A stretch of DNA of 64,000 bases, taken from assembly GCA_000004695.1 (NCBI GenBank), contig CM000151.3, positions 5,568,001 through 5,632,000 on the forward strand. The letters are read 5' to 3'. Made by a program: the position numbers and the translations under genes. The notes below the pieces were generated by a model that ran no database searches, was not told where the DNA came from, and saw only the letters and a program-made list of their open reading frames with translations. Position 1 is the stretch's first letter. Each line of letters begins with the position of its first letter. This document shows, piece after piece, positions 14,772 to 26,129 of this stretch. The stretch comes from Dictyostelium discoideum (taxonomy: Eukaryota).

Positions 14772-14932
14772 ATTTAATCTAAGTAGTGACTATATATTTT
14801 TTTTTTTTATTTATTTTATTAATATTAAATAAATTCTTTTTTTTTTTTTTTAAAAAATATTATTATAATCAATACATACCATATCGTCTTTTTTTTTTTT
14901 TTTTTTTTTTTTACATATAATACAAAACTAAT

Positions 14933-14971
<39 letters not shown>

Positions 14972-15020
14972 AAAATTTCAAAAAAAAAAAAATTGTTTTG
15001 GGTTCGCACAATTTATATTA

Positions 15021-15079
<59 letters not shown>

Positions 15080-15525
15080 AAACAAAGAAAAATTAAAAAA
15101 ATATTAAAAACAAAAAAAAATAAATATCGTTATGAAAGAAAAAAGTTAAAAAAAAAAAATAAATAAATAAATAAAAAAAATAAAAAAAAAAATTAAGTTC
15201 TTTATGTCGGGTGGCCATAACCAACATTTGTTGAATTTTTTATTTTTTTATTTTTTTTTTTTTTTTTTTTATTTTTTTTTTTTTTTTTTTTTTTTTAAAA
15301 TTAAGCTTTTTAATTTTTTTTTTTTTTTTGTTTTATTTTTTTAATTTTAAAATTCTATATTATTATTTTTTTTTTTTTTTTTATCATAGTGTCTGTTTTT
15401 ATTTTTCATTTTTTATTTATTTTTATTATATAATTTAATTTTTGTTTTATTATAAAGTATTATTACAATTTTTTCTTTTTCCACATTTTCAATAATAAAA
15501 AAAAAAGTGCAAAAATAAACAAATA

Positions 15526-16443
15526 ATGAGCAAAGAAGATAAAATAACTCAACAATGTATTCAAAGATTGGAAGAATTATTAAAATTGGAAGAAAATAGA
15601 TATTGTGCTGATTGCAGTTCAAAGAGTAAGTTTTTTTTTTTTTTTTTTTTTTAATTAAATTTAAATTAAAATAAAATTTAAATCATATCATTTTTTTTTT
15701 TTTTTTTTTTTAAATTTATATAAATCATATTAAAATACACACCCATTTATTTATTATTATTGTTATTATTATTGTTTTTTAATTTTATTATTATTTACTA
15801 ACAAATGAAATTTAATTGGAAATAATAAATTTAAAAAAAAGATCCAAGATGGTGTTCAACCAATTTAGGTATTTTTGTTTGTATAAAATGTTCAGGTATT
15901 CATAGATCATTAGGTGTCCATATCTCAAAGGTTAGAAGTGTTACACTTGATAAATGGAATTTTGAATTATTACAACAAATGGTTGATGGAGGTAACAAAA
16001 AAGTGAATCAAATCTATGAAGAGTTCATGCCAGCTCACTATAGAAAACCAGATCCAAACACTGATACACAGTAAGTATAGAATAGGATTTTATTCATCAA
16101 AAAAAAATTGAATAAACTTTATTAATAATATTGTTATTATTATTGTCTCTTTTTTATTCTAGCACTTTAGAACAATTCATTAGAAGTAAATATGAAAGAA
16201 AAGAATTTATGAGAAGAGATATTAGTTCTCGTACTGGAAATAATAATAATAATAATAATAATAATCATCACCAACAACACCAACAACAACAACCAAGACG
16301 TGAAAACTATGGTGGTAATAGTGGAGGTGGTTTCTCTTCAACAAATAATGTAGAATTACGTTCATACTCACAAAATAATAATAATAGCAATGGCTATAAC
16401 AATAACAATAATAACAATAACTACAACAACAACAATAACAACA

Positions 16444-16476
<33 letters not shown>

Positions 16477-17615
16477 GAGGATATTCAACTACTAACCCAA
16501 GTAATCAATCACATGGATTTGTTAGACCATCAATAGCAAATGGTTTTGCAACAACTGAATTTAATAATCATAACAATAACAATAACAATAGTAATAATAA
16601 TAATAATAATAATAATTTCAATAATAACATAAAACCACCAACACCAGTTCAAACAAAGAGTAATGTATCATTAATTGATGACCAATGGAATAGCGCACCA
16701 CAAGGTAAGAAATCATTAATCGATGATGATTTCAATGGTCCATCTGTTGCACCACAACAACAACCACATAGTACCTTTGATCCATTTGTTGGTTCAAAAG
16801 TAAGCAGCAATGGTGCTAACAATAACAATATCAATATGAACAACAATATGAACAACAATATGAACAACAATATGAATAATAATATGAACAACAATAATAT
16901 GAATAAACAACCATTTAATAATAATGGATTCCCTACACCACCAACTGGTATGAATAGTATGATGGGAGGTAACAATAATAACAATTTCAATATGATGAAT
17001 AATGGTGGTGGTATGATGCCAATGAATAATGGTATGATGAACAATGGTGGCATGATGAATAATGGTGGTGGTGGTATGATGCCAATGAATAATGGCGGTA
17101 TGATGCCAATGAATAATGGTGGTATGATGAACAATGGTGGTATGTTGAATAATGGTGTTATGATGAACAATGGTGGTATGATGCCAATGAATAATGGAGG
17201 TATGATGGGAGGATTTGGTGGTATGATGCCAATGAATAATGGTGGTATGATGGGTGGTGCTAACAATATGGGTGGCATGAATTTAGGAATGAATGCTATG
17301 TCTCCAATGGGTGGTGCTCCAATGAATAACAATATGGGCGCTATGAATTTAGGAATGAATGCTATGTCTCCAATGGGTGGTGCTCCAATGAGGTCACCAG
17401 CAGCTGCTGGAAATAACTCTTTCAATATTACTCCAACTTCTGCTACTCCAACTCCACCACAACCATCTCAATTCTCTTCTTTGGATTCTTTAATGTTTAC
17501 TTCATCCCCATCTCAACCAAAACAATCACAACCATCTCAATCATTTGGTAACAATTTCCCAATCACTGCAAATAATTCAAATAACAACAATAATGTTAAT
17601 AGCTTATTCTTTTAA
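15526..17615 (+). CDS. SMAP-type Arf GTPase-activating protein with a long Asn/Gln/Met-Gly-rich tail; join(15526..15625,15842..16070,16163..17615)
   Basis: Exon 1 reads MSKEDKITQQCIQRLEELLKLEENRYCADCSSK. Exon 2 reads NPRWCSTNLGIFVCIKCSGIHRSLGVHISKVRSVTLDKWNFELLQQMVDGGNKKVNQIYEEFMP…, giving the C-x2-C-x16-C-x2-C ArfGAP zinc finger plus the R-finger. Exon 3 starts …TLEQFIRSKYERKEF (SMAP1/2-like). Introns are GTAAGT at 15626 …AG at 15841 and GTAAGT at 16071 …AG at 16162, and the phases are consistent. Confidence 0.85.
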
Positions 17616-17796
17616 TAAAATATTACAATAATAATAATAAAAATACAAAAAAAAGAAAAAAATGAAAAAAAAGAAAAAAAAAAAAAGAAATGAAATAAAA
17701 AAAAAATATTTATAAAATGAAAATTAAAAAAAATAAATAAAAATATATAGTATTTTCAATTTGTTGTTTTATTTCTTTTATTTAATATTTAAAATT

Positions 17797-18734
17797 TTAA
17801 AATATTTTCAAACGATCAGGGGAACATTGGTCTTCAAAATATTTGGAAATAAAAGTGTAACTATGTCTTGATATTTGATAACAACAATAATGTGGAGGAC
17901 AATCAATATTTTCATAACAAACTGCCATTGGTCTTGGTGGTAAAGTTGAGCCAGTTGTTGTGGTACTTGATGTTGCTCCAATTGTAGATGAATAGATAGT
18001 TGATAATTCAGTGGTATGGCTTACGGTTGTTAGGTCAGTTGTGGTTGTTGGAATAAATGTTGTTGAAGTAGTAGATGGTGATGTTGTTGGCATTGTTGTG
18101 GTTGTTGACATTGTTGAAATTGTTGTTGGTGAAAATGTTGAAATTGTTGTTGGATTGAGTGTTGTTGATGTAGTTGCAGAAGTTGTAGTTGTTGGTAATG
18201 AAGTTATTGTTGAAGTTGTTGGAATTGATGTAGTTGTGGCCTCACTTGTTATAATAGAGGTGGTTGTAGTTGTAGTTATTTCTACACATAGACATCCACC
18301 ACCTTCACAATATGGATATAGACAGTCATCAGTTACTGGACACTCTACAAAATTCGTTGTAGAGTGTTCAGAATTTTCATCACATTGTTTTGGGAAACAT
18401 AAATCAGTAGTGTTACAATTACTTTCATCACATCTACAACCGGCAATATAAGCGTGTTCACAACAAGTTCCTTCTGTACAATAATCAAGTGTACATGCAT
18501 CACCATCACCACAATCTCTATCTGCTACTACACAGGTACCACATAAAGTTCTCTTTTGAGAACAACTTGTTAGATCATCAAAACATTGATTTCTACAAAT
18601 ACCATCACTAAATTAAATAAAAAATAAAAATTAATATTTTTTTATAACAATAATTAAAAAAAAAAAAAAAAAAAAAAAATAATACACACTTCACAAAATC
18701 CACATTCATCAACATAACTACAAAATATTCCCAT
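17797..18734 (-). CDS. Cys-rich plus Thr-rich mucin-like extracellular protein (spore-coat/prestalk-matrix-like); model join(18734..18688,18607..17797)
   Basis: The large exon encodes about 110 aa with about 26 Cys (CxxC and CC pairs), followed by about 100 aa of Thr/Ser/Pro-rich low complexity, and ends with a C-terminal Cys-rich knot (CYENIDCPPHYCCYQ). An 80-nt AT-rich intron (18687..18608) joins a small upstream exon MGIFCSYVDECGFCE. No signal peptide is seen, so this may be the 3' part of the PA14 gene immediately upstream. Confidence 0.55.
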
Positions 18735-18835
18735 ATTATTAGTTATATTGCAAGAAAGAATTCTCTATGGTCAACATTATCCATATGTTGATAACCGAAA
18801 ATATTAGCAGTATGAGTATGATTAAGATAATCATT

Positions 18836-19674
18836 TCAAAAAATAAGGTGTTCACCATATGGATTTTCGCTGAAACCAATACCTCCTTTGTCAATCACTA
18901 ATTGATTATCAATGAATGCCCAAATCTCACCAGGTGAATCAATTGTTAAAAAAGCGAATATAGGTAATCTACTAATTGGAATTGGTCCATTAAATCTAAA
19001 TGAAAAATGGGGTTCAAAACAAAATAAACCTTGATCAATATCGTTATCATAATTAAATAATGTTTGGTTATTAAAACCAATATCAGAGTATGAAAATGGA
19101 TATGAACTAATTTCTCCAAAATTACAATCTGGACATTCTATAAAATATTCAAATGGAAAATCAACTCTATAGGATGGACATTGAGAGTCATCAACAACGC
19201 CATATGGAGCATCGGCAAACCATTGACTAACTGAATTTTCTCCATGCACAACAATTACATTTGGATCATTAGTTGATTCAACTTCACTATCACCCTAAAA
19301 TTTAGATAAATAAATAAAAAATTAGTATTTTCTTTCAATTCATTTAAAAAATAGATACATACACAACAAAAACCTGGATTTGAAATTGTATCTGAATAAT
19401 TTTTAAAAATTTCTGGTAATATCTTCGTCTAAACTGGAAAGATCCAATCCAAAATCTAAATTTCTATCTGGTTTAAATTGCCATGTCTTAAATATCATCT
19501 GAGGTATTTCTAATGATAATGATGATAATGATGATAATGAGAAAATCATATTTAATATTTTAAAAGATATTAAATTTAAAAAAAAAAAAAAATAAAAAAA
19601 AAAAAAAACATACCTTGCCCATTGACAAAATATACAAAATTAAGTATTGATAATAATAGTATTATCGTTTTCAT
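18836..19674 (-). CDS. Secreted PA14-domain protein; model join(19674..19614,19412..19363,19294..18836)
   Basis: Exon 1 is a signal peptide MKTIILLLSILNFVYFVNGQ followed by a GTATGT donor (phase 1). The large exon (ORF 18836..19249, open to 19294 after acceptor tttag) contains the PA14 core …FAFLTIDSPGEIWAFIDNQLVIDKGG…. A 50-nt bridging exon (19412..19363, phase 1 to 0, GTATGT donor) is the only combination found that connects the phases. It is speculative, and the skipped region is less AT-rich than typical introns. The ORF ends at an in-frame TGA (18836) that is followed by 30 more coding-like codons (see findings). Confidence 0.5.
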
Positions 19675-20036
19675 TTTTGAAATCCTTAATTCTCAATGAG
19701 TATTAAATTTTTTGATTCTTTTTTAATTTATTAATTTATTAATTTATTTTTTTATTTTTTTATTTTTTTATTTTTTTATTTTAATTTTTTTATTATTTTT
19801 TATTATTTTTTATTATTTTTTTGTGTGTATAAATAAAAAGTGGGTCATTTTACAATTTTGTTTTTATAAACTTTTAATAGTGTGTTATTATTTAAACTCA
19901 CACCCACTTATTAGTATTTTTTGATTTTTTTTATTTATTTGGACAAAAACTAAATCTATTATTAGAAAAAAAAAAAAGAATGATATATTTATTTTAAATT
20001 AATTAAAAAAACAAATATATATATTTTATTAATTTT

Positions 20037-20891
20037 TTATTGAGTTAAATTTTCACGACATGGGCAACAACCAAAGGGTTTTTCACCTGGTTTACAATAT
20101 TTAATATCCATTGTGCACATAGCTTTAGAACAATCTGGAACTTTGGTTTCTTGAGGTGTGCAAGGACAACAACCAGTTGGAAGTTCACCATTTTTACAAT
20201 ATCTAATGTCCATTGTACACATTACATCAGAACAATCTGGTTTTTTAGTTGGTTGAGGTGTACATGGACAACAACCAGTTGGAAGTTCACCTTCTTTACA
20301 GTATTTCAAAATCTTTGGACATGGAACTCTTGAACAATCTGGTTTTTTAGTTGGTTGAGGTGTACATGGACAACAACCAGTTGGAAGTTCACCTTCTTGG
20401 CAATATTTTAAAATCTTTGGACATGGAACTTTTGAACAATCTGGTTTTTTAGTTGGTTGAGGTGTACATGGACAACAACCAGTTGGAACTTCACCATCTT
20501 TACAATATTTGATTTGAAGAGTACATGCGACACCTGTACATGGTTCACAACGACCACAACAAGAATCGGTCATGTTTAATCTATAATATGGTTTACATAC
20601 TGGTCTAGCACATTTAACAAGGGAGCAATCTGGTTTGGTTGGTGGGAGAGTACATGGACAACAACCGGTTGGAACTTCACCATCTTGACAATATTTGACT
20701 TGAAGAGTACATGCAACATCGGTACAAGGTTCACAACGACCACAACAAGAATCGGTCATGTTTAATCTATAATGAGGTTTACATATTGGTTGGGCACATC
20801 TAACGAGGGAGCAATCAACATTAACTTCACTTTTAACTGATAGTACCAAACAACTTGATAGAATTAATAATAGTATTAGTTTATTTAACAT
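20037..20891 (-). CDS. Secreted cysteine-rich tandem-repeat protein (VWC-like CC-x-C-x-PC units)
   Basis: 284 aa with signal peptide MLNKLILLLILSSCLVLSVKS. It has 2 copies of a 48-aa unit (DCSLVxCAxPxCKPxYRLNMTDSCCGRCEPCTxVACTLQxKYCxDGEVPTGCCPCT) and then 6 copies of a ~31-aa unit (PDCSxVxCxxxIxYCxxGExPxGCCPCTPQxTK[K/V]). The underlying 90-93-nt DNA units are near-identical (e.g. ggtgtacatggacaacaaccagttggaa recurs at about 20270, 20361, 20461 and 20640). Confidence 0.8.
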   Translation of the reverse strand: MLNKLILLLILSSCLVLSVKSEVNVDCSLVRCAQPICKPHYRLNMTDSCCGRCEPCTDVACTLQVKYCQDGEVPTGCCPCTLPPTKPDCSLVKCARPVCKPYYRLNMTDSCCGRCEPCTGVACTLQIKYCKDGEVPTGCCPCTPQPTKKPDCSKVPCPKILKYCQEGELPTGCCPCTPQPTKKPDCSRVPCPKILKYCKEGELPTGCCPCTPQPTKKPDCSDVMCTMDIRYCKNGELPTGCCPCTPQETKVPDCSKAMCTMDIKYCKPGEKPFGCCPCRENLTQ

Positions 20892-21879
20892 TTTTGTGCT
20901 TTTCTAAAATTTTAATAATGAAAAAAAAATAACAAAAAAAATATGTCCTATTTATATTAGTATTTTTTTTTAATAATGAAAAAAAAAAAAAAAAAAATTT
21001 AATTGAAAATAATTCAATTAAATAAAAAAAACCAAATTTCCTTTTTTATAATTAAATAACAATAATAACAATTTAATTTATCCAAATCATTATAAAAATA
21101 AAAAAAATAATAATATAAAAAAATAAAATCTTCCAACACTCCCCCATTATAATAAAAATGATTTTTTTTGTTTTTTTTTTATTTATTTTTTTTTTGTAAA
21201 TTTTTTTAATTAGATCTAGTGAATCGGAATTAATAAAAACCAACGTTCTATTTGTTGAAATTAAAAAAAAATAATATTTTCATATACATACAAAATATTC
21301 TAATTTAAAAAATAAATAATAAAAAGATAGTGAAAAAAAAAAAAAAAAAAAAATTTAATTTAAATAAAAAAAAAAAAAAAAAAAAAGTTGCACTGGTGTT
21401 AATTTGAATAAAAAAAAAAAAAAACACAAAATAAAACAATTACACAAGTATTATTCAAATAAAATCTCAAAAAATAAATGGTTAACAGAATTATAGATTA
21501 TTTAATGGAAAAAAAAAAAAATCTCAAATGAAATAACATTTTTATTTTTTAATTTTGGTTACACACAAGAAGAAAACATAATTTAAGGAGAGGTATTTGA
21601 AATTTATTTCTGTATTTTATCCACCCTTATATAAAAAAACTCGGTTACTAACAAAAATAAGTCTGTTACCATTAGAGTTAACAACTAATGAAAATTTTTA
21701 AAATAAATAATTCATTTAGTTATATTTTTTTTTTTTTGAAATATCATCGAGTTTCTGTTCAAATATATGATGGTTTTTGGTAATGAAATAACACAATCGA
21801 AATAAAAAAAAAATAAAAAAAAAAATAATTTAAATAATACCCATTATTTCAGTATTTATTGGTAAATATTTAATATCAA

Positions 21880-22340
21880 ATTTTAAATTAACATATTTAG
21901 ATCCAATATTTACAGTTATTCCAACTATCCAAAATAATTAAGATGGAATTTAAATAGTAATTGGTGGGATTAGTTTATCAGATATTGTAAATGCAACTTT
22001 AACACTATCTTCAAATAATAAAAAAAATAATAATACTATAATACCTCTAAAATGTAATTTTCAATGTAGTCTATCACCAAATCAAACATTAGTTTATTAT
22101 AATAATCCGAAATTAAGTTCAAATGAAAGTGAAATTACAAATGATACCGATCGTTTATCATGTCATTCAAATTCAAACATCAAGAATATTATACCTTCAA
22201 TTTGACCCAACATTATATCATTATGGTGTTAAATTGGATATTGGTCACCATCATCATCATATAGTGTGGTAAGTAAATCATCTAAATTATTAAGTAATAC
22301 AATTGCAGGTATTACAATTAGTTGTATAATTGATGTTGGT
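21880..22340 (+). pseudogene. Coding-like segment without an intact ORF; possible degenerate or unmodelled small secreted/GPI-anchored protein gene
   Basis: Composition is about 65% AT (versus >85% in flanking intergenic DNA). The region reads …VIGGISLSDIVNATLTLSSNN…LKCNFQCSLSPNQTLVYYNNPKLSSNESEITNDTDRLSCHSNSNIKNIIPSI* and then, in another frame, …SNTIAGITISCIIDVGSLVALF* (a GPI-signal-like hydrophobic tail). It is interrupted by stops and frame changes, and a GTAAGT at about 22269 has an AG only about 40 nt downstream. Confidence 0.3.
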
Positions 22341-22466
22341 TCTCTTGTTGCTTTATTTTAAATTAATAAAAATAATAATAATAATAATAATAATATTCTT
22401 AGAATTCTTTTTGTTTTTTATTTAATGTTTCTAATAAAAAAAAAATAAAAAAAATATATTTTATAT

Positions 22467-25400
22467 TTATTGAAGTAAATTTAATTTTAATTTTTTACTA
22501 TCAAATGATTTTTCTAAATTAAAAACTTGATCAAATTCACTTTGGACACTAATATCATGATCGATTACAACTACAGAATCTTTTTCTTGTAAATTTCTAA
22601 GAAGATCACAAATGATTGGTTTAACGGAAGAATCTAAATGGTTTGTGAGTTCATCGATGATAATTGTTGTTATTCTTGAACCTGAATGGTTGAAAACCAC
22701 TTCACTTAGAGCAAAAGGGCTATAAGATAATTCTACACAACGTCTTTGACCACCACTTAATTGATAAAATGATCTTGGTACTAATGTACCATCCTTTGAA
22801 GATAATTCAAATACTTCTAAAGATAACTCCTCTTGATTATCGATTGAGAGTTTTGTAAATAATTTACCCTTTGATAATATTGAAAGGAATTGATTTGCAT
22901 AGGTTTCAACTTGTTCAATTACATTTAACAATACCATCAATGGTAAACCACTAGCACTGAAACCTGTCTCCCAGAATTGGTAATTCAATAATTGAGATTG
23001 AACATCTTTAAATAAAGATTCATTCAATTCAATTGAATTCATTAGTTTTTCAATATTTTGTTGTTTCTCTTTAATCTTTTCATTAAATGGATTTAAAGAT
23101 TGTTCCAATTGTAAAATTTGATTTTTTCTATTACCAATTGAGTCTTTTAAATAACCTAAATTAATTTCAATCTTTGAATAATCTTGAATTTGTTTATTTA
23201 AAAATTGTAATTCAATTTGTTTATCTTTTAACTCTAATTGAATCTTTAATTTCCTTTCATCAATTAATTTCTTTTCATTTTCAAATTCAATTTTCAATTG
23301 ATTTTCTTTATTTTCAAATTCTTTAATTTCATTTTGAAATTTTTCAGATTTAATTTTTAAATTTTCAATTTTATCTTTAATATTATTAGTTTCATTTTCA
23401 TCATTATTATTAATTAAAGTTTGACCACATTGACTACATTTATTCTCAATTAAATGCTTATTTAAATGGTTAATTGTATCTGTTAAATTTTTAAATTCAA
23501 ATTGATTTTGTTTAATTCCATATTTTAAATTTGTTAAATTTTCATTAAATTTAATTGATAATCTAGTTGAATCACGTTGAATTATTTCCTTTTCATTTTC
23601 TAATGATCTAATTAATTTTTGAATTTCATTAATTTTATCTTTTGTAATATTTAAATTATTATTTTCTTTATTATCTTCATGATTATAGATAATTAAAGTA
23701 TTATTTAAATTTTGAAAATTAATTAAATCTTTTTCTAATTGTTGATTTAAAATTGATAAATTTGTTGATTTTTCATTTAACCAATCTAAAGATTGTTTTT
23801 GAAAATCAATTGACGACCAAGTTGATAATGAAGATTTTTCATTTGAAATTAATTTTTCAAGATTATCTAATTCTGATTTTTTCTTTTTTCTCAATTCTTT
23901 TGATAATTTTGCAGCAGGTATACAAGTACCTAATGAAAATATACGTGATAATAATTCTTTTCTACGTTTATCAGTATCAGTTACAAAATTTGAAATTGAA
24001 CCTTGACCTAAATAAATACTCATTCTAAAGCAATCATAATCTAAACCGATTATATTGTTAATCAATGACTGTTGATCTAAAACACCCTGTTTAAAATTAT
24101 CATTATCCTCATCTAAACCATTGATAACAATTTTTGAACCGGATTTCCTAGTTTTGGATCTCACGATTTCAATAGATTTACAATCATCAATTAATAATTC
24201 AACTTTAACAGATGCCTGTTTAGATTGATCATTTATAACCTCATCACCTTTAATACTTGAACTTGAAGTTGACTGTTTCTTTGGAGAAGTATTACCATAT
24301 AAACACCACACCAATGCTTCGAATATTGTTGATTTACCAGACCCCATTTCACCTCTAATCATAATCATTCTATTTATCATCTCTTGTTGATCAACATCCA
24401 TTGATAAATTTAATTCTAATTCACCACCTAATCCACAAAAATCTTTAATTGTAATCTTTTGAATTTTAACTTTTCTACCCATAGGTACAATGGTTGGCTC
24501 ATTCACCATTGATAATATCTCTTTACCTAAATATAATAATTTCTTTTTCGATTCATTTTCTTCAACTAAAAAATTTCTTTCAATTTGTTGATCAATATAA
24601 TTTTCTAAAAAATCTTCCAATTTAAATTTAATTGGTGTTATTGTCGTTGTTGTTGTTATTTTATTATCATTTAAATTTTCATTTGTTTTAAAAAGTTGTT
24701 TTTTTATTGAATTTTCATTGATCATAACTCTTCTTAAATCAATGAATGGTGGTAAAGAATTAATTGAATCAATATAATCTTTTGATTTCATATTATCTAA
24801 AGTTGATTGAACTTCAACAATATCTTTTGATTTAACTAATGAAGTTTTACTTGACTCAAATGGAAAATATAATTTATGATGACGTGGTAAATCATTGAAA
24901 TCAATAAATCTTGGTTTAATTTCATTTGAATCAACAAATGCAACGCCATGTGGATCATTCATCTCTCCAAAATTTTGTTCATATGGACTGCCAATATACC
25001 AAAAATTATTTGAAATTTGTTGACGTTTATGATAATGTCCTAAATAACATGATCTAATATTATTACTACTACTACTATTATTATTATTTTCATTATTATT
25101 TTCAATTATTAAATCTTCAATTTGAAATTTACCATGTGATTTATAACCACCATTTGAAATCGCACCTTTAATTTCGGCATGTGCAAAAACAGTCCATTTA
25201 TTATGAATTGATGAATCAATATTTGGTTTAATAGTTGATAAATTTGTAAATAATTGTTTTTGTTCTTCTTTTTGTTCTCTCCATGGTAAATATGCAAAAC
25301 CATTATCATAATCAATGATTGGATCAGTTGCAACTTTAAAATTTGGAAATAGGGAAAACATTTGAATAGCATGTACACTACCATCAATAGAAACTTGATC

Positions 25401-25683
25401 ATGATTACCTGGTATGAATATGGTTTCAATATTACATCTCTTCCATTGTTCAAATTCTTTTAATAATTGATCAATATGTCTAACATGAAGTATATTACGT
25501 TGATGCCAAAAATCACCTAAAAATATAACTGGTGTTGGTCCAATATTACTATCAATATTACCATTATTATTATTATTAATTGATTCTAAACAACTTAATT
25601 CTCTAACTTTTTTTAAAACGTCAATAGTTCTATCTAATGATTTTGATGATACATGTAAATCTGTAAATAATAATCTTTTCCAA

Positions 25684-25726
<43 letters not shown>

Positions 25727-25823
25727 CTCTACTATTAGTATTACTAAAACCCCTTTTTATTTCATTTTCTATTCTTCTTAGATTAATTTTATTATTTTTT
25801 ATTAATAAATTATTAATCATCAT
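22467..25823 (-). CDS. Single-polypeptide SbcD-SbcC-like fusion: an N-terminal Mre11/SbcD-type metallophosphoesterase nuclease fused to a Rad50/SbcC-type ABC ATPase with coiled coil and CxxC hook
   Basis: 1118-aa uninterrupted ORF. Nuclease motifs: TDLHVS (motif I, D-x-H), FLGDFWH (II, GD), IPGNHDQ (III, GNHD), FAHAEI, YLGHYHKRQ (GHxH), YIGSPYEQ. ATPase motifs: Walker A IRGEMGSGKST (about aa 490), Q-loop SIYLGQGS, about 450 aa of heptad-rich coiled coil containing CSQCGQ (hook-like CxxC near its centre), ABC signature LSGGQRRCV, Walker B/D-loop TTIIIDELTNHLD, H-loop VVVIDHD. The order nuclease then ATPase mirrors the bacterial sbcD-sbcC operon order. Confidence 0.8.
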
Positions 25824-26067
25824 TAATTAAATTAAATAAAAAAATAAAAAAATAGAATAGTTAAAATTAATGAAAAAAAAAAAAAAAAAAAAATTAAAAA
25901 ACGAATTTAAAATTAAAAAAAAAAAAAAAAAAAAAATATTAAAAAAATATTTAATTAAATTTAAAAATATCGTAACCTTTTGGTTATTTAAATAATATAC
26001 AAGTTTTTATTTTAAATGGTTTTTTTTTTTTTTTTTCACCTTTTTAAAATTATTATAGTTTTACACA

Positions 26068-26129
<62 letters not shown>

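Follow-up and report, generated by a model that had tools for sequence, protein, structure and literature searches.

The locus at positions 17797 to 19674 (minus strand) of the window, a stretch of 64,000 nucleotides from chromosome 2 of Dictyostelium discoideum AX4, is very likely a unitary pseudogene, left by the decay of one gene that had four exons and encoded a secreted protein. This reading follows from the existence of intact syntenic orthologues, from lesions which, the in-frame TGA excepted, were found to be real in independent assemblies, and from relaxed constraint, measured on small counts. The TGA itself, for which stop-codon read-through had been considered in an earlier note on this DNA, very probably belongs to the same context of ordinary gene decay. 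The locus lies directly downstream of ampA, the neighbouring gene being an exact match to AX4 ampA (P05817).

When the sequence of the window was re-checked, the features described from the sequence alone were all found where they had been placed on the minus strand. An ATG at 19674 is followed by the signal-peptide-like MKTIILLLSILNFVYFVNGQ and a GTATGT donor, and the PA14 open reading frame (ORF) of 137 codons is terminated by the TGA at 18838-18836. The same frame runs on for exactly 30 sense codons (NDYLNHTHTANIFGYQHMDNVDHREFFLAI) up to a TAA at 18745-18743, and the Cys-rich and Thr/Ser-rich blocks are in an ORF ending at 17797. The stretch past the TGA is indeed coding-like (GC 27.8 %, compared to 6-13 % in true introns), and in every homologue its counterpart is the C-terminal portion of the domain. 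The spacer between its stop and the Cys-rich exon is ~135 nt, compared to the ~100 nt first given, and is partly a coding remnant in the third frame (NNMGIFCSYVDECGFCE, 18742-18690). An unresolved intron had been suspected between the two halves, and a true intron is present at 18689-18608. The 5' structure described as atypical, with a 201-nt intron (19613-19413) and a 50-nt exon (19412-19363), reproduces in number and frame, and is explained as the skipping of a former exon 2, which avoids a frameshift. The 201-nt 'intron' holds 140 nt of this exon, with a GC content of 28 % and ~90 % identity to orthologous coding sequence. The parts of the locus are as follows (a slash marks a splice junction):

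19614 to 19674, minus strand: exon 1, with the start codon, the signal peptide (MKTIILLLSILNFVYFVNGQ) and one further base that opens the following codon; donor GTATGT from 19613
19510 to 19613, minus strand: intron 1, if the cryptic in-frame acceptor CATTAG/AA is used; GC 11.5 %
19363 to 19509, minus strand: exon 2 remnant, N-terminal strands of the PA14-like domain (EIPQMIFKTWQFKPDRNLDFG...ISNPGFCC), from alignment to orthologues
19295 to 19362, minus strand: intron 2, GTATGT...TTTTAG, position kept in all orthologues; GC 13 %
18690 to 19294, minus strand: exon 3 remnant, encoding the PA14-like core, the C-terminal part of that domain and the first portion of the Cys-rich region (…GEIWAFIDNQLVIDKGG…ANIFGYQHMD…NNMGIFCSYVDECGFCE), from alignment to orthologues
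18836 to 18838, minus strand: in-frame TGA, ancestral GGA (Gly), from comparison of assemblies, strains and species
18809 to 18820, minus strand: tandem duplication of CATACT, an in-frame 6-nt insertion changing HT to HTHT, AX4 lineage only
18743 to 18745, minus strand: TAA from a 1-nt deletion between 18744 and 18743, ancestral ATA TAT ACT becoming ATA TA-A CT
18608 to 18689, minus strand: intron 3; GC 6 %; donor GTATGT changed to GTGTGT
18280 to 18607, minus strand: exon 4, Cys-rich block, 20 Cys in 109 aa, with a Dicty_CTDC-type repeat at 18513-18448
17944 to 18279, minus strand: exon 4, Thr/Ser-rich mucin-like block by composition, 112 aa, 67 % T+S
17797 to 17943, minus strand: exon 4, C-terminal Cys module (LPPRPMAVCYENIDCPPHYCCYQIS...DQCSPDRLKIF) and stop codon, conserved in orthologues and in D. 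purpureum

The lesions were mapped base by base against the orthologues and the other assemblies. Exon 1 aligns with its counterpart of 58-61 nt in the intact orthologues and also serves as exon 1 of the annotated gene DDB_G0275607. The ancestral acceptor of intron 1, at 19548-19547, now reads TG instead of AG (TTTAG/ATTC in ACTFIY, TATG ATTT in AX4). In exon 2, a 2-nt deletion between 19416 and 19415 results in a premature TAA at 19405-19403; the 3' end of this remnant corresponds to the 50-nt exon of the earlier description and to an annotated 29-nt exon (19391-19363). The exon 3 remnant carries the TGA, the 6-nt duplication, a Cys-to-Tyr change and the 1-nt deletion, and it is the TAA created by this deletion, at 18745-18743, that is the real separator of the two annotated ORFs. 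The junction of the intron 3 acceptor and exon 4 is short by 2 nt (ancestral TTTAG/GGTGATGG, now TTTAG/TGATGG). An invariant Cys has been replaced by Ser in the Cys-rich block (18363-18361) and another by Phe in the C-terminal module (17853-17851).

Every AX4 lesion except the 18838 T/G difference is present in GCA_054883475.1, an independent long-contig assembly of D. discoideum, including the two frame-shifting deletions (2 nt and 1 nt) and the altered acceptors of introns 1 and 3. The 2-nt deletion of exon 2 was found in the assembly ACTFIT. The deletion at 18744/18743 is common to AX4, ACTFIT and Logan contigs, and is absent from ACTFIR, ACTFIW and every other species. The Logan contigs, which derive from four different sequencing runs and stop short of the intron 3 acceptor, carry in addition the duplication and the Cys-to-Tyr change. 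They contain the introns and are thus genomic, and were rejected as transcripts that could show splicing. In the Logan strains a 15-nt gap occurs at the site of the 2-nt deletion, putting the frame of exon 2 back. From ACTFIR and ACTFIW, both labelled D. discoideum, only fragments of the gene were recovered, with different large deletions and frameshifts.

The T at 18838 is confined to the AX4 reference sequence, where it sits at a homopolymer boundary (T6G compared to T5GG). The codon is GGA (Gly) in the independent, near-identical D. discoideum assembly and in separate Logan contigs, and GGA, GGT, GGG or GCA in all other strains and species. All four substitutions (4/4) between AX4 and the independent assembly over 12.9 kb are located at homopolymer boundaries. 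The T is somewhat more probably a base-call error of the reference at such a boundary, a mutation private to AX4 being a reasonable possibility. Exact look-ups of the 137-aa (TGA) and 168-aa (GGA) ORFs for the allele in AX4-type read sets found neither of them indexed. The earlier suggestion of a sequence error is therefore plausible for this base, but correcting it does not rescue the gene. The TGA is without consequence, since the frame is already broken both upstream (TAA 19405-19403) and downstream (TAA 18745-18743). Even with the TGA corrected and intron 3 spliced, the shared deletions and the acceptor damage break the frame. None of the GT/AG pairs examined by eye fits the phase and intron size needed to bypass the 18744 frameshift in one mRNA.

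The contiguous PA14 to Cys-rich architecture, for which a search for paralogues had been proposed as a check, was found in four intact genes of sister taxa. One intact gene with four exons and encoding 533-555 aa is present at the same position in D. cf. discoideum, D. citrinum and D. dimigraforme: ACTFIZ_009725 (D. cf. discoideum, 552 aa), the 555-aa gene of ACTFIY, ACTFIU_008096 (D. citrinum, 533 aa) and ACTA71_004440 (D. dimigraforme, 545 aa). Based on the synteny check, these genes adjoin ampA wherever ampA is present. Their products have a signal peptide, a divergent PA14-like domain, a Cys-rich Dicty_CTDC block, a Thr-rich mucin region and a C-terminal Cys module, in this order. They cover 97-100 % of the stitched AX4 sequence, with 74-83 % amino acid identity in the alignment (66-77 % with BLASTP), and their 3 introns are at conserved positions. 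AX4 shares the position, the four-exon structure and the module order. However, the orthologues have open frames and 36 of 36 conserved Cys residues, whereas AX4 has two frameshifts, damaged splice sites and, in the reference, a nonsense codon. Of the 36 invariant Cys residues AX4 lacks three, whereas every intact species has kept all of them. The earlier proposal of a single secreted gene (signal peptide, PA14, Cys knots, mucin, Cys knot) is thus correct as history, but not as a gene which is intact today or which depends on read-through.

Substitution patterns also indicate relaxed constraint. On the AX4 branch the ratio of nonsynonymous to synonymous changes (N:S) was 26:10 (omega 0.69), an estimate from only 36 substitutions and with omega below 1, and in the structured regions it was 24:7 (omega 0.81). 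The corresponding ratios on the intact branches were 128:118 and, in the structured regions, 99:90 (omega 0.26); omega on these branches was 0.18-0.34. The difference between AX4 and the intact branches gave Fisher p values of 0.031 overall and 0.011 in the structured regions. Both halves of the gene show the increase in AX4, with 14:4 for the PA14-like region and 9:2 for the Cys block. In the 5' half, members of the species differ from each other by 2 nonsynonymous changes, of which one falls in the invariant EIWAF motif, and by 1 nonsense change; no synonymous difference was seen.

The current AX4 annotation has two genes at this locus, DDB_G0275607 (Q86H75, 182 aa) and DDB_G0275605 (285 aa), and these AX4 fragment proteins, 100 % identical to the sequence, were retrieved both by an exhaustive search and by a second query from which the Thr run was left out. 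The model of DDB_G0275607 omits most of exon 2. That of DDB_G0275605 lacks a signal peptide, takes as its start an internal Met 9 nt past the upstream stop, and moves the donor of intron 3 by +2 (after 18688), which keeps the frame. Neither identifier was found in the searchable literature or in the searched part of the tables of one life-cycle proteome. A literature search on the new Dictyostelium assemblies gave no result, and searches of supplements were negative.

Two separate genes had been the second option of the earlier note. It matches the annotation but is best read as an annotation artefact of the pseudogene. In a gene fission, the frameshift would have left two still-functional genes: DDB_G0275607, or a longer version of it that extends to TAA 18745-18743, would encode a small PA14-like protein for secretion, and DDB_G0275605 a separate Cys/Thr-rich protein. 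We consider this unlikely, even though a second pipeline split another assembly similarly and the splice sites offer ways to keep the two frames open. Intron 1 has in-frame cryptic acceptors (CATTAG/AA, ACCAG/AA or TTCAG/AT), and the 15-nt gap of the Logan contigs leaves exon 2 in frame, giving a complete ORF of signal peptide and domain. The change from GTATGT to GTGTGT in intron 3 creates a GT two bases downstream, and this +2 shifted donor can exactly offset the 2 nt missing at the acceptor. However, the 5' models which preserve the ORF drop 30-40 residues that do not vary among the orthologues (FKTWQFKPDRN.DFGL) and form strands of the domain. A Cys-rich mucin needs secretion, yet DDB_G0275605 has no signal peptide and its internal Met start is only 9 nt away from the upstream stop. 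Also speaking against fission are the raised N:S and the lost invariant Cys residues in both halves, the lack of synonymous changes within the species in the 5' half, and the deletion of large parts of both halves in ACTFIR and ACTFIW.

It is also conceivable, although we give this even less weight, that the gene is caught in the act of fission or rescue, secondary changes having partly restored the reading frames. The compensating GT 2 nt downstream, the new in-frame CATTAG acceptor and the 15-nt gap in some wild strains would be such changes. If so, at least the 5' half would live on in some D. discoideum strains, encoding a shortened PA14-like lectin that is secreted and whose presence or absence is polymorphic in the species. 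It is highly improbable that the living organism carries an intact gene and that every lesion is an error of the 2005 reference assembly. The TGA, which is at a homopolymer boundary and differs from the independent assembly, would be compatible with this, but the deletions, acceptor changes, duplication and Cys losses are identical in the independent long-contig assembly, and the same lesions recur, where covered, in the Logan contigs from four sequencing runs; this explanation is refuted for every lesion except 18838. Programmed recoding, in which read-through of the TGA or its translation into an amino acid would lengthen the PA14 domain, would account for the 30 coding-like codons homologous to the rest of the domain, but can practically be dismissed, as the stop varies already inside D. 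discoideum, a Gly codon in nearly all other strains and species (GGA, GGT, GGG or GCA) leaves no conserved signal, read-through would end at the next frameshift-induced stop (18745-18743), and an mRNA with exon 2 already stops at 19405-19403.

The PA14 label of the N-terminal domain was only partly confirmed, the Pfam model giving no match and the evidence in favour being indirect. The Pfam PA14 model (PF07691) had no match at E<=1 on pieces of the window or at E<=10 on the intact orthologues P0001-P0003. In the exhaustive profile search, the domain profile matched the Acytostelium protein SAMD00019534_005910 (P0013) in three stretches (E 4.3e-7), and this protein itself contains three Pfam PA14 domains (E 1.1e-34). 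With hhalign the similarity to it covered the core and the C-terminal part (probability 90 %, E 1.5e-6), and in the alignment to this bona fide PA14 protein the homology continues past the TGA. The two share with each other the motifs ...LTVxSxxxxWxFIxxxLVIDxGG..., ...DxFxCxR... and ...CGxCxG. Such profile similarity points to PA14 homology at the superfamily level, and Q86H75 is named 'PA14 domain-containing protein' in UniProt. The AF2 model of the domain was of low confidence (pLDDT 53, pTM 0.63). Its top Foldseek matches were nearly all PA14 structures (Epa1/6, 6m8m, 5j6y, Flo1, GH3/GH31 inserts, RsgI), with a best E of 1.9e-3 and TM of 0.2-0.37 (probability 0.9-0.99) for this query of pLDDT 53, and the best match of a PDB profile search was the PA14 domain of RsgI3 (E 0.025). 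Coming from a low-confidence model, the fold evidence for PA14 is at most suggestive. The fibro-slime model TIGR02148 scored 15.8-17.9 bits (E 0.003-0.015), below its 45-bit cut-off, and covered only the GEIWAFIDNxLVIDKGG core. The Cys-rich block scored 28.0 bits in P0001 and 30.3 bits in P0002 with Dicty_CTDC (PF00526), for which the gathering score is 27 bits, and 24.2 bits in P0003, just below this threshold. The AX4 copy had no match to PF00526 at E<=1, which is consistent with decay of the motif (CGDGDACTLDYCTEGTCCEHAY compared to CDDGDACTLDFCTEGTGCEHSY).

Relatives of the gene are few. The exhaustive profile search returned 8 matches in all among 1.84e9 representatives, with no intact AX4 paralogue among them. 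The only homologues of this full architecture found outside the discoideum complex at E<1e-3 are two D. purpureum proteins, DICPUDRAFT_97512 (563 aa, E 3.6e-8) and DICPUDRAFT_79572 (474 aa, E 5.7e-5), both named 'PA14 domain-containing protein' in UniProt. They are alike in full architecture, including the C-terminal module CxxxxCPxxYCCIQ...YTC(V/I)S.YFE..CS..RL, which is kept in both D. purpureum sequences of our set (P0012 and P0014), although the identity in the N-terminal domain is only ~25 %. The PA14 and Dicty_CTDC class includes Psi, the prespore-cell-inducing factor family, e.g. PsiA, and is represented here by the Acytostelium protein. At E<=1e-3 the exhaustive profile search found no D. 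discoideum Psi protein, only the psi-like Acytostelium protein. Compared to the Psi/PA14-CTDC class, the subfamily of this locus has its own C-terminal Cys module and a long Thr-rich stalk, and it stays below the thresholds of the Pfam PA14 and TIGR02148 models. Among the matrix, adhesion and signal proteins of dictyostelids, secreted or exposed proteins with PA14 and Cys-rich CTDC repeats are recognised as a class of their own (PMC4931340, PMC12821622). The intact protein of the sister species is probably an extracellular matrix, adhesion or signalling glycoprotein of this general kind. The fungal PA14 adhesins (Candida Epa, yeast Flo) and the PA14 domains of bacterial RTX adhesins appear similar in design, with a lectin domain of PA14 type at the N-terminus that is displayed on a glycosylated stalk rich in Ser/Thr, and they are the top Foldseek matches of the low-confidence model, although with E only 2e-3 or worse. 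Neither the fungal nor the bacterial adhesins match the locus at the sequence level, and the resemblance concerns how the intact protein may work rather than family membership.

The unitary pseudogene would descend from a gene encoding a signal peptide, a divergent PA14-like domain of the carbohydrate-binding type, a Dicty_CTDC-type block, a Thr-rich stalk for O-glycosylation and, at the C-terminus, a Cys module. The changes shown for the AX4 lineage are the mutated intron 1 acceptor, the frame-shifting 2-nt and 1-nt deletions, the 2 nt missing at the intron 3 acceptor, the loss of conserved Cys residues and the accumulation of amino-acid-changing substitutions at a near-neutral rate. The TGA would be one more lesion, restricted to the AX4 reference sequence and replacing the ancestral Gly codon, and DDB_G0275607 and DDB_G0275605 would be what gene prediction salvages from the decayed gene. 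We infer that no functional protein is made from the AX4 locus, which may still give rise to some truncated product.

The main value of the finding is in annotation. DDB_G0275607 / Q86H75 and DDB_G0275605, which the reference lists as hypothetical proteins, would be fragments of one dead gene, to be merged and flagged as a pseudogene, and window base 18838 is a candidate reference error. The locus has no bearing on translational recoding. It would represent the recent loss, specific to this lineage, of a PA14-like / CTDC / mucin protein destined for secretion and encoded beside the adhesion gene ampA, with the gene decaying independently in several D. discoideum lineages while the sister species retain it. 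As such it would be a modest example of how rapidly the genes for matrix and adhesion proteins turn over in dictyostelids.

The locus that adjoins ampA on its downstream side in Dictyostelium discoideum AX4 is very probably a lineage-specific unitary pseudogene of a PA14-like/CTDC/mucin gene, misannotated as two hypothetical genes. The window has a GC content of ~22%, with poly-Asn ORFs and coding blocks parted by short, extremely AT-rich spacers. Directly upstream, in the same orientation as the locus, the ORF at 20891-20037 matches the AX4 ampA/prestalk D11 protein (P05817) exactly, which places the window on AX4 chromosome 2. The downstream neighbour (16131-17615, plus strand) is a long Asn/Gly/Met-rich low-complexity ORF, the start of which (…STLEQFIRSKYERKEF) resembles the end of an ArfGAP-type domain; in all species an orthologue of about 593-606 aa lies next to the PA14-mucin locus. 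Three-frame translation of the minus strand, with residue counts for the Cys-rich and Thr-rich blocks, recovered every sequence element that the earlier note had listed.

Sequence elements of the AX4 locus
ATG 19674 to a GTATGT donor, minus strand: signal-peptide exon
18838-18836, minus strand: TGA that terminates an ORF
After the TGA to TAA 18745-18743, minus strand: 30 more sense codons in the unchanged frame
Within the ORF ending at 17797, minus strand: Cys-rich block, 20 Cys in 109 aa
3' of the Cys-rich block, minus strand: Thr-rich block, 67% T+S over 112 aa
3' of the Thr-rich block, ending at 17797, minus strand: Cys-containing terminal part of the ORF

The 201-nt intron and 50-nt exon proposed earlier are numerically right and keep the frame. 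The "intron" looked atypical because only part of it is genuine AT-rich intron (GC 5%), the other 140 nt having once belonged to exon 2 (GC 28%).

When the four coding blocks were conceptually stitched across stops and frameshifts, a protein search aligned 97-100% of the resulting sequence to four proteins from Dictyostelium (502-552 aa), and an additional intact gene (555 aa) was reconstructed in strain ACTFIY of D. cf. discoideum. Exact spliced alignment showed four exons and three introns at identical positions in the genes of D. cf. discoideum, D. citrinum and D. dimigraforme. The two frame joins of the stitched protein coincide with uninterrupted orthologue stretches, 'ITPEIFKNY' and 'LAIYTNNMGIF', and the TGA column of the protein alignment is Gly in all three full-length orthologues ('LILGNDNLN'). 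Upstream of the orthologues lies ampA, where it is present, and downstream, on the opposite strand, they share a neighbouring gene of roughly 600 aa; tblastn of their proteins against the window found a single copy only. In D. citrinum and D. cf. discoideum ampA lies upstream of the orthologue, whereas no ampA homologue was found by tblastn upstream of the gene in the 14 kb around the D. dimigraforme orthologue, where ampA may be absent or relocated. D. cf. discoideum carries a tandem second gene copy between ampA and the intact copy, also decayed: in ACTFIZ (ACTFIZ_009726, L001:7829-9657) it has 11-nt and 2-nt deletions and is still annotated as a 502-aa protein, and in ACTFIY (L007:7350-8820) it has been broken up and rearranged, with some pieces inverted, and is annotated as two proteins of 121 and 124 aa.

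Nucleotide alignment of the AX4 copy to the intact genes mapped the following lesions.

Lesions in the AX4 copy
19548-19547, minus strand: intron-1 acceptor AG changed to TG
Between 19416 and 19415, minus strand: 2-nt deletion leading to TAA 19405-19403
18838-18836, minus strand: GGA changed to TGA
18820-18809, minus strand: in-frame duplication of CATACT
Between 18744 and 18743, minus strand: 1-nt deletion leading to TAA 18745-18743
18688-18690 region, minus strand: intron-3 donor GTATGT changed to GTGTGT
18607, minus strand: 2 nt lost at the intron-3 acceptor/exon-4 junction

The two AX4 models bridge these lesions. DDB_G0275607 (182 aa, XP_643440, UniProt Q86H75, named 'PA14 domain-containing protein'), found by exhaustive profile search, joins exon 1, 29 nt of exon 2 (19391-19363) and exon 3 as far as the TGA. 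DDB_G0275605 (285 aa), found with a second query, begins at the internal Met 18734 and regains the frame in exon 4 with a donor moved by 2 nt (after 18688). This donor is the second GT that the A-to-G change creates exactly 2 nt downstream, offsetting the 2-nt loss at the acceptor, which could be coincidence or compensatory. The annotation pipeline of another assembly likewise gave two models (231 and 278 aa). The suggestion of two genes thus describes the present annotation, but the evidence taken together indicates that this annotation is an artefact, ORF models having been fitted onto a gene that is broken. A word-indexed search with the full stitched query, which scored the best 8000 candidates by words shared with the query, missed both 100%-identical AX4 models, perhaps because the Thr-rich stretch crowded them out; a protein that such a search misses may still be annotated.

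Decay is also seen in the coding sequence. In a codon alignment of repaired AX4 and four intact genes, with changes polarised as singletons, nonsynonymous to synonymous changes were 26:10 on the AX4 branch (omega 0.69) and 128:118 on the intact branches (Fisher test, p 0.03), and in structured regions 24:7 (omega 0.81) and 99:90 (omega 0.26; p 0.011). Three of the 36 Cys invariant in intact genes are replaced in AX4, compared to none in any of the intact species, and Dicty_CTDC, the only Pfam-detectable motif, scores 24-30 bits in orthologues and has no match in AX4. The assemblies ACTFIR and ACTFIW (GCA_054859385.1, GCA_054859355.1), labelled D. discoideum, retain only fragments of about 88% identity to AX4, with their own frameshifts and large deletions that differ (corresponding to window 19947-19018/19233 and 18580-18361) and without the AX4-lineage lesions; the locus has therefore decayed independently in several lineages. 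Their divergence seems high within one species and may reflect cryptic lineages. As the exhaustive profile search (1.84 billion representatives, E<=1e-3) found no other AX4 member of the subfamily, the loss is probably unitary.

Gene fission, giving two functional genes from one, is unlikely. Splice choices that preserve ORFs exist, and Logan contigs from four sequencing runs (SRR26869246/67/68, SRR28564542) have a 15-nt gap at 19417-19403, the site of the AX4 2-nt deletion, which restores the exon-2 frame and a full signal peptide and PA14-like ORF to the 18745 TAA. However, the second fragment is without a signal peptide and the first without conserved domain strands, constraint is relaxed in both halves, and other strains carry deletions. 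The contigs also have D-to-Y and F-to-S changes, the latter within the invariant EIWAF; over the 5' half two nonsynonymous changes in all (one in EIWAF) and the nonsense/Gly site set them apart from AX4, with no synonymous difference.

That all lesions are errors is very improbable, being refuted by independent assemblies save at 18838. The independent D. discoideum assembly GCA_054883475.1, 99.8% identical to the window over 4.5 kb, has all the AX4 frameshifts and splice-site changes, and its sole base substitution there is at 18838, where G gives GGA. The Logan contigs also read GGA and have the duplication, the 18744 deletion and a Cys-to-Tyr change in common with AX4. The TGA is thus peculiar to the reference, and the remaining lesions are genuine. 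Where the AX4 reference and GCA_054883475.1 overlap (12.9 kb), four substitutions separate them, all at homopolymer boundaries (T6G in AX4, T5GG in GCA_054883475.1 at 18838), and the indels are of homopolymer length only, which suggests technical error in either assembly, not true polymorphism; the differences include 15712, 15300, 15021 and nine homopolymer tracts (14912-26125). A base-call error is slightly favoured for the TGA, because the other allele is the ancestral state in apparently the same genotype, but it may be a private mutation. Of the earlier idea of one secreted gene with read-through or a sequence error, the single gene stands as the ancestral state, given the intact contiguous four-exon genes at the same place in relatives, and an error is plausible for the TGA but not for the frameshifts and splice lesions; programmed read-through, the least credible reading of all, is refuted because none of the other genomes compared has the stop. 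The reference-specific TGA is irrelevant to function.

The N-terminal domain is most aptly described as PA14-like but divergent. The Pfam PA14 model had no match on the window protein or the intact orthologues, and TIGR02148 'fibro-slime' scored 16-18 bits against a 45-bit cut-off. A profile of the domain matched eight proteins at E<=1e-3 among 1.84 billion representatives, including orthologues and their fragments, two full-architecture D. purpureum proteins and, three times, an Acytostelium protein in which Pfam recognises three PA14 domains (E 4e-7 for the profile match); a bacterial repeat protein among the eight was regarded as spurious. With hhalign (90% probability) the alignment to the Acytostelium PA14 region crosses the TGA position and reaches the CGxCxG motif, so the domain extends beyond the TGA, as had been suspected. 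The AlphaFold model was poor (pLDDT 53), and its Foldseek matches were almost all PA14 structures, with weak E-values.

With its PA14-type lectin, Cys-rich CTDC repeat and Thr-rich stalk, the architecture falls within a class already described from dictyostelids, that of matrix, adhesion and signal proteins, with the Psi family among them (PMC4931340; PMC12821622), and it resembles fungal PA14 adhesins in design only. The intact protein would presumably act in matrix or adhesion. The loss in AX4 is ordinary biology, and its value lies in a useful correction of the annotation.
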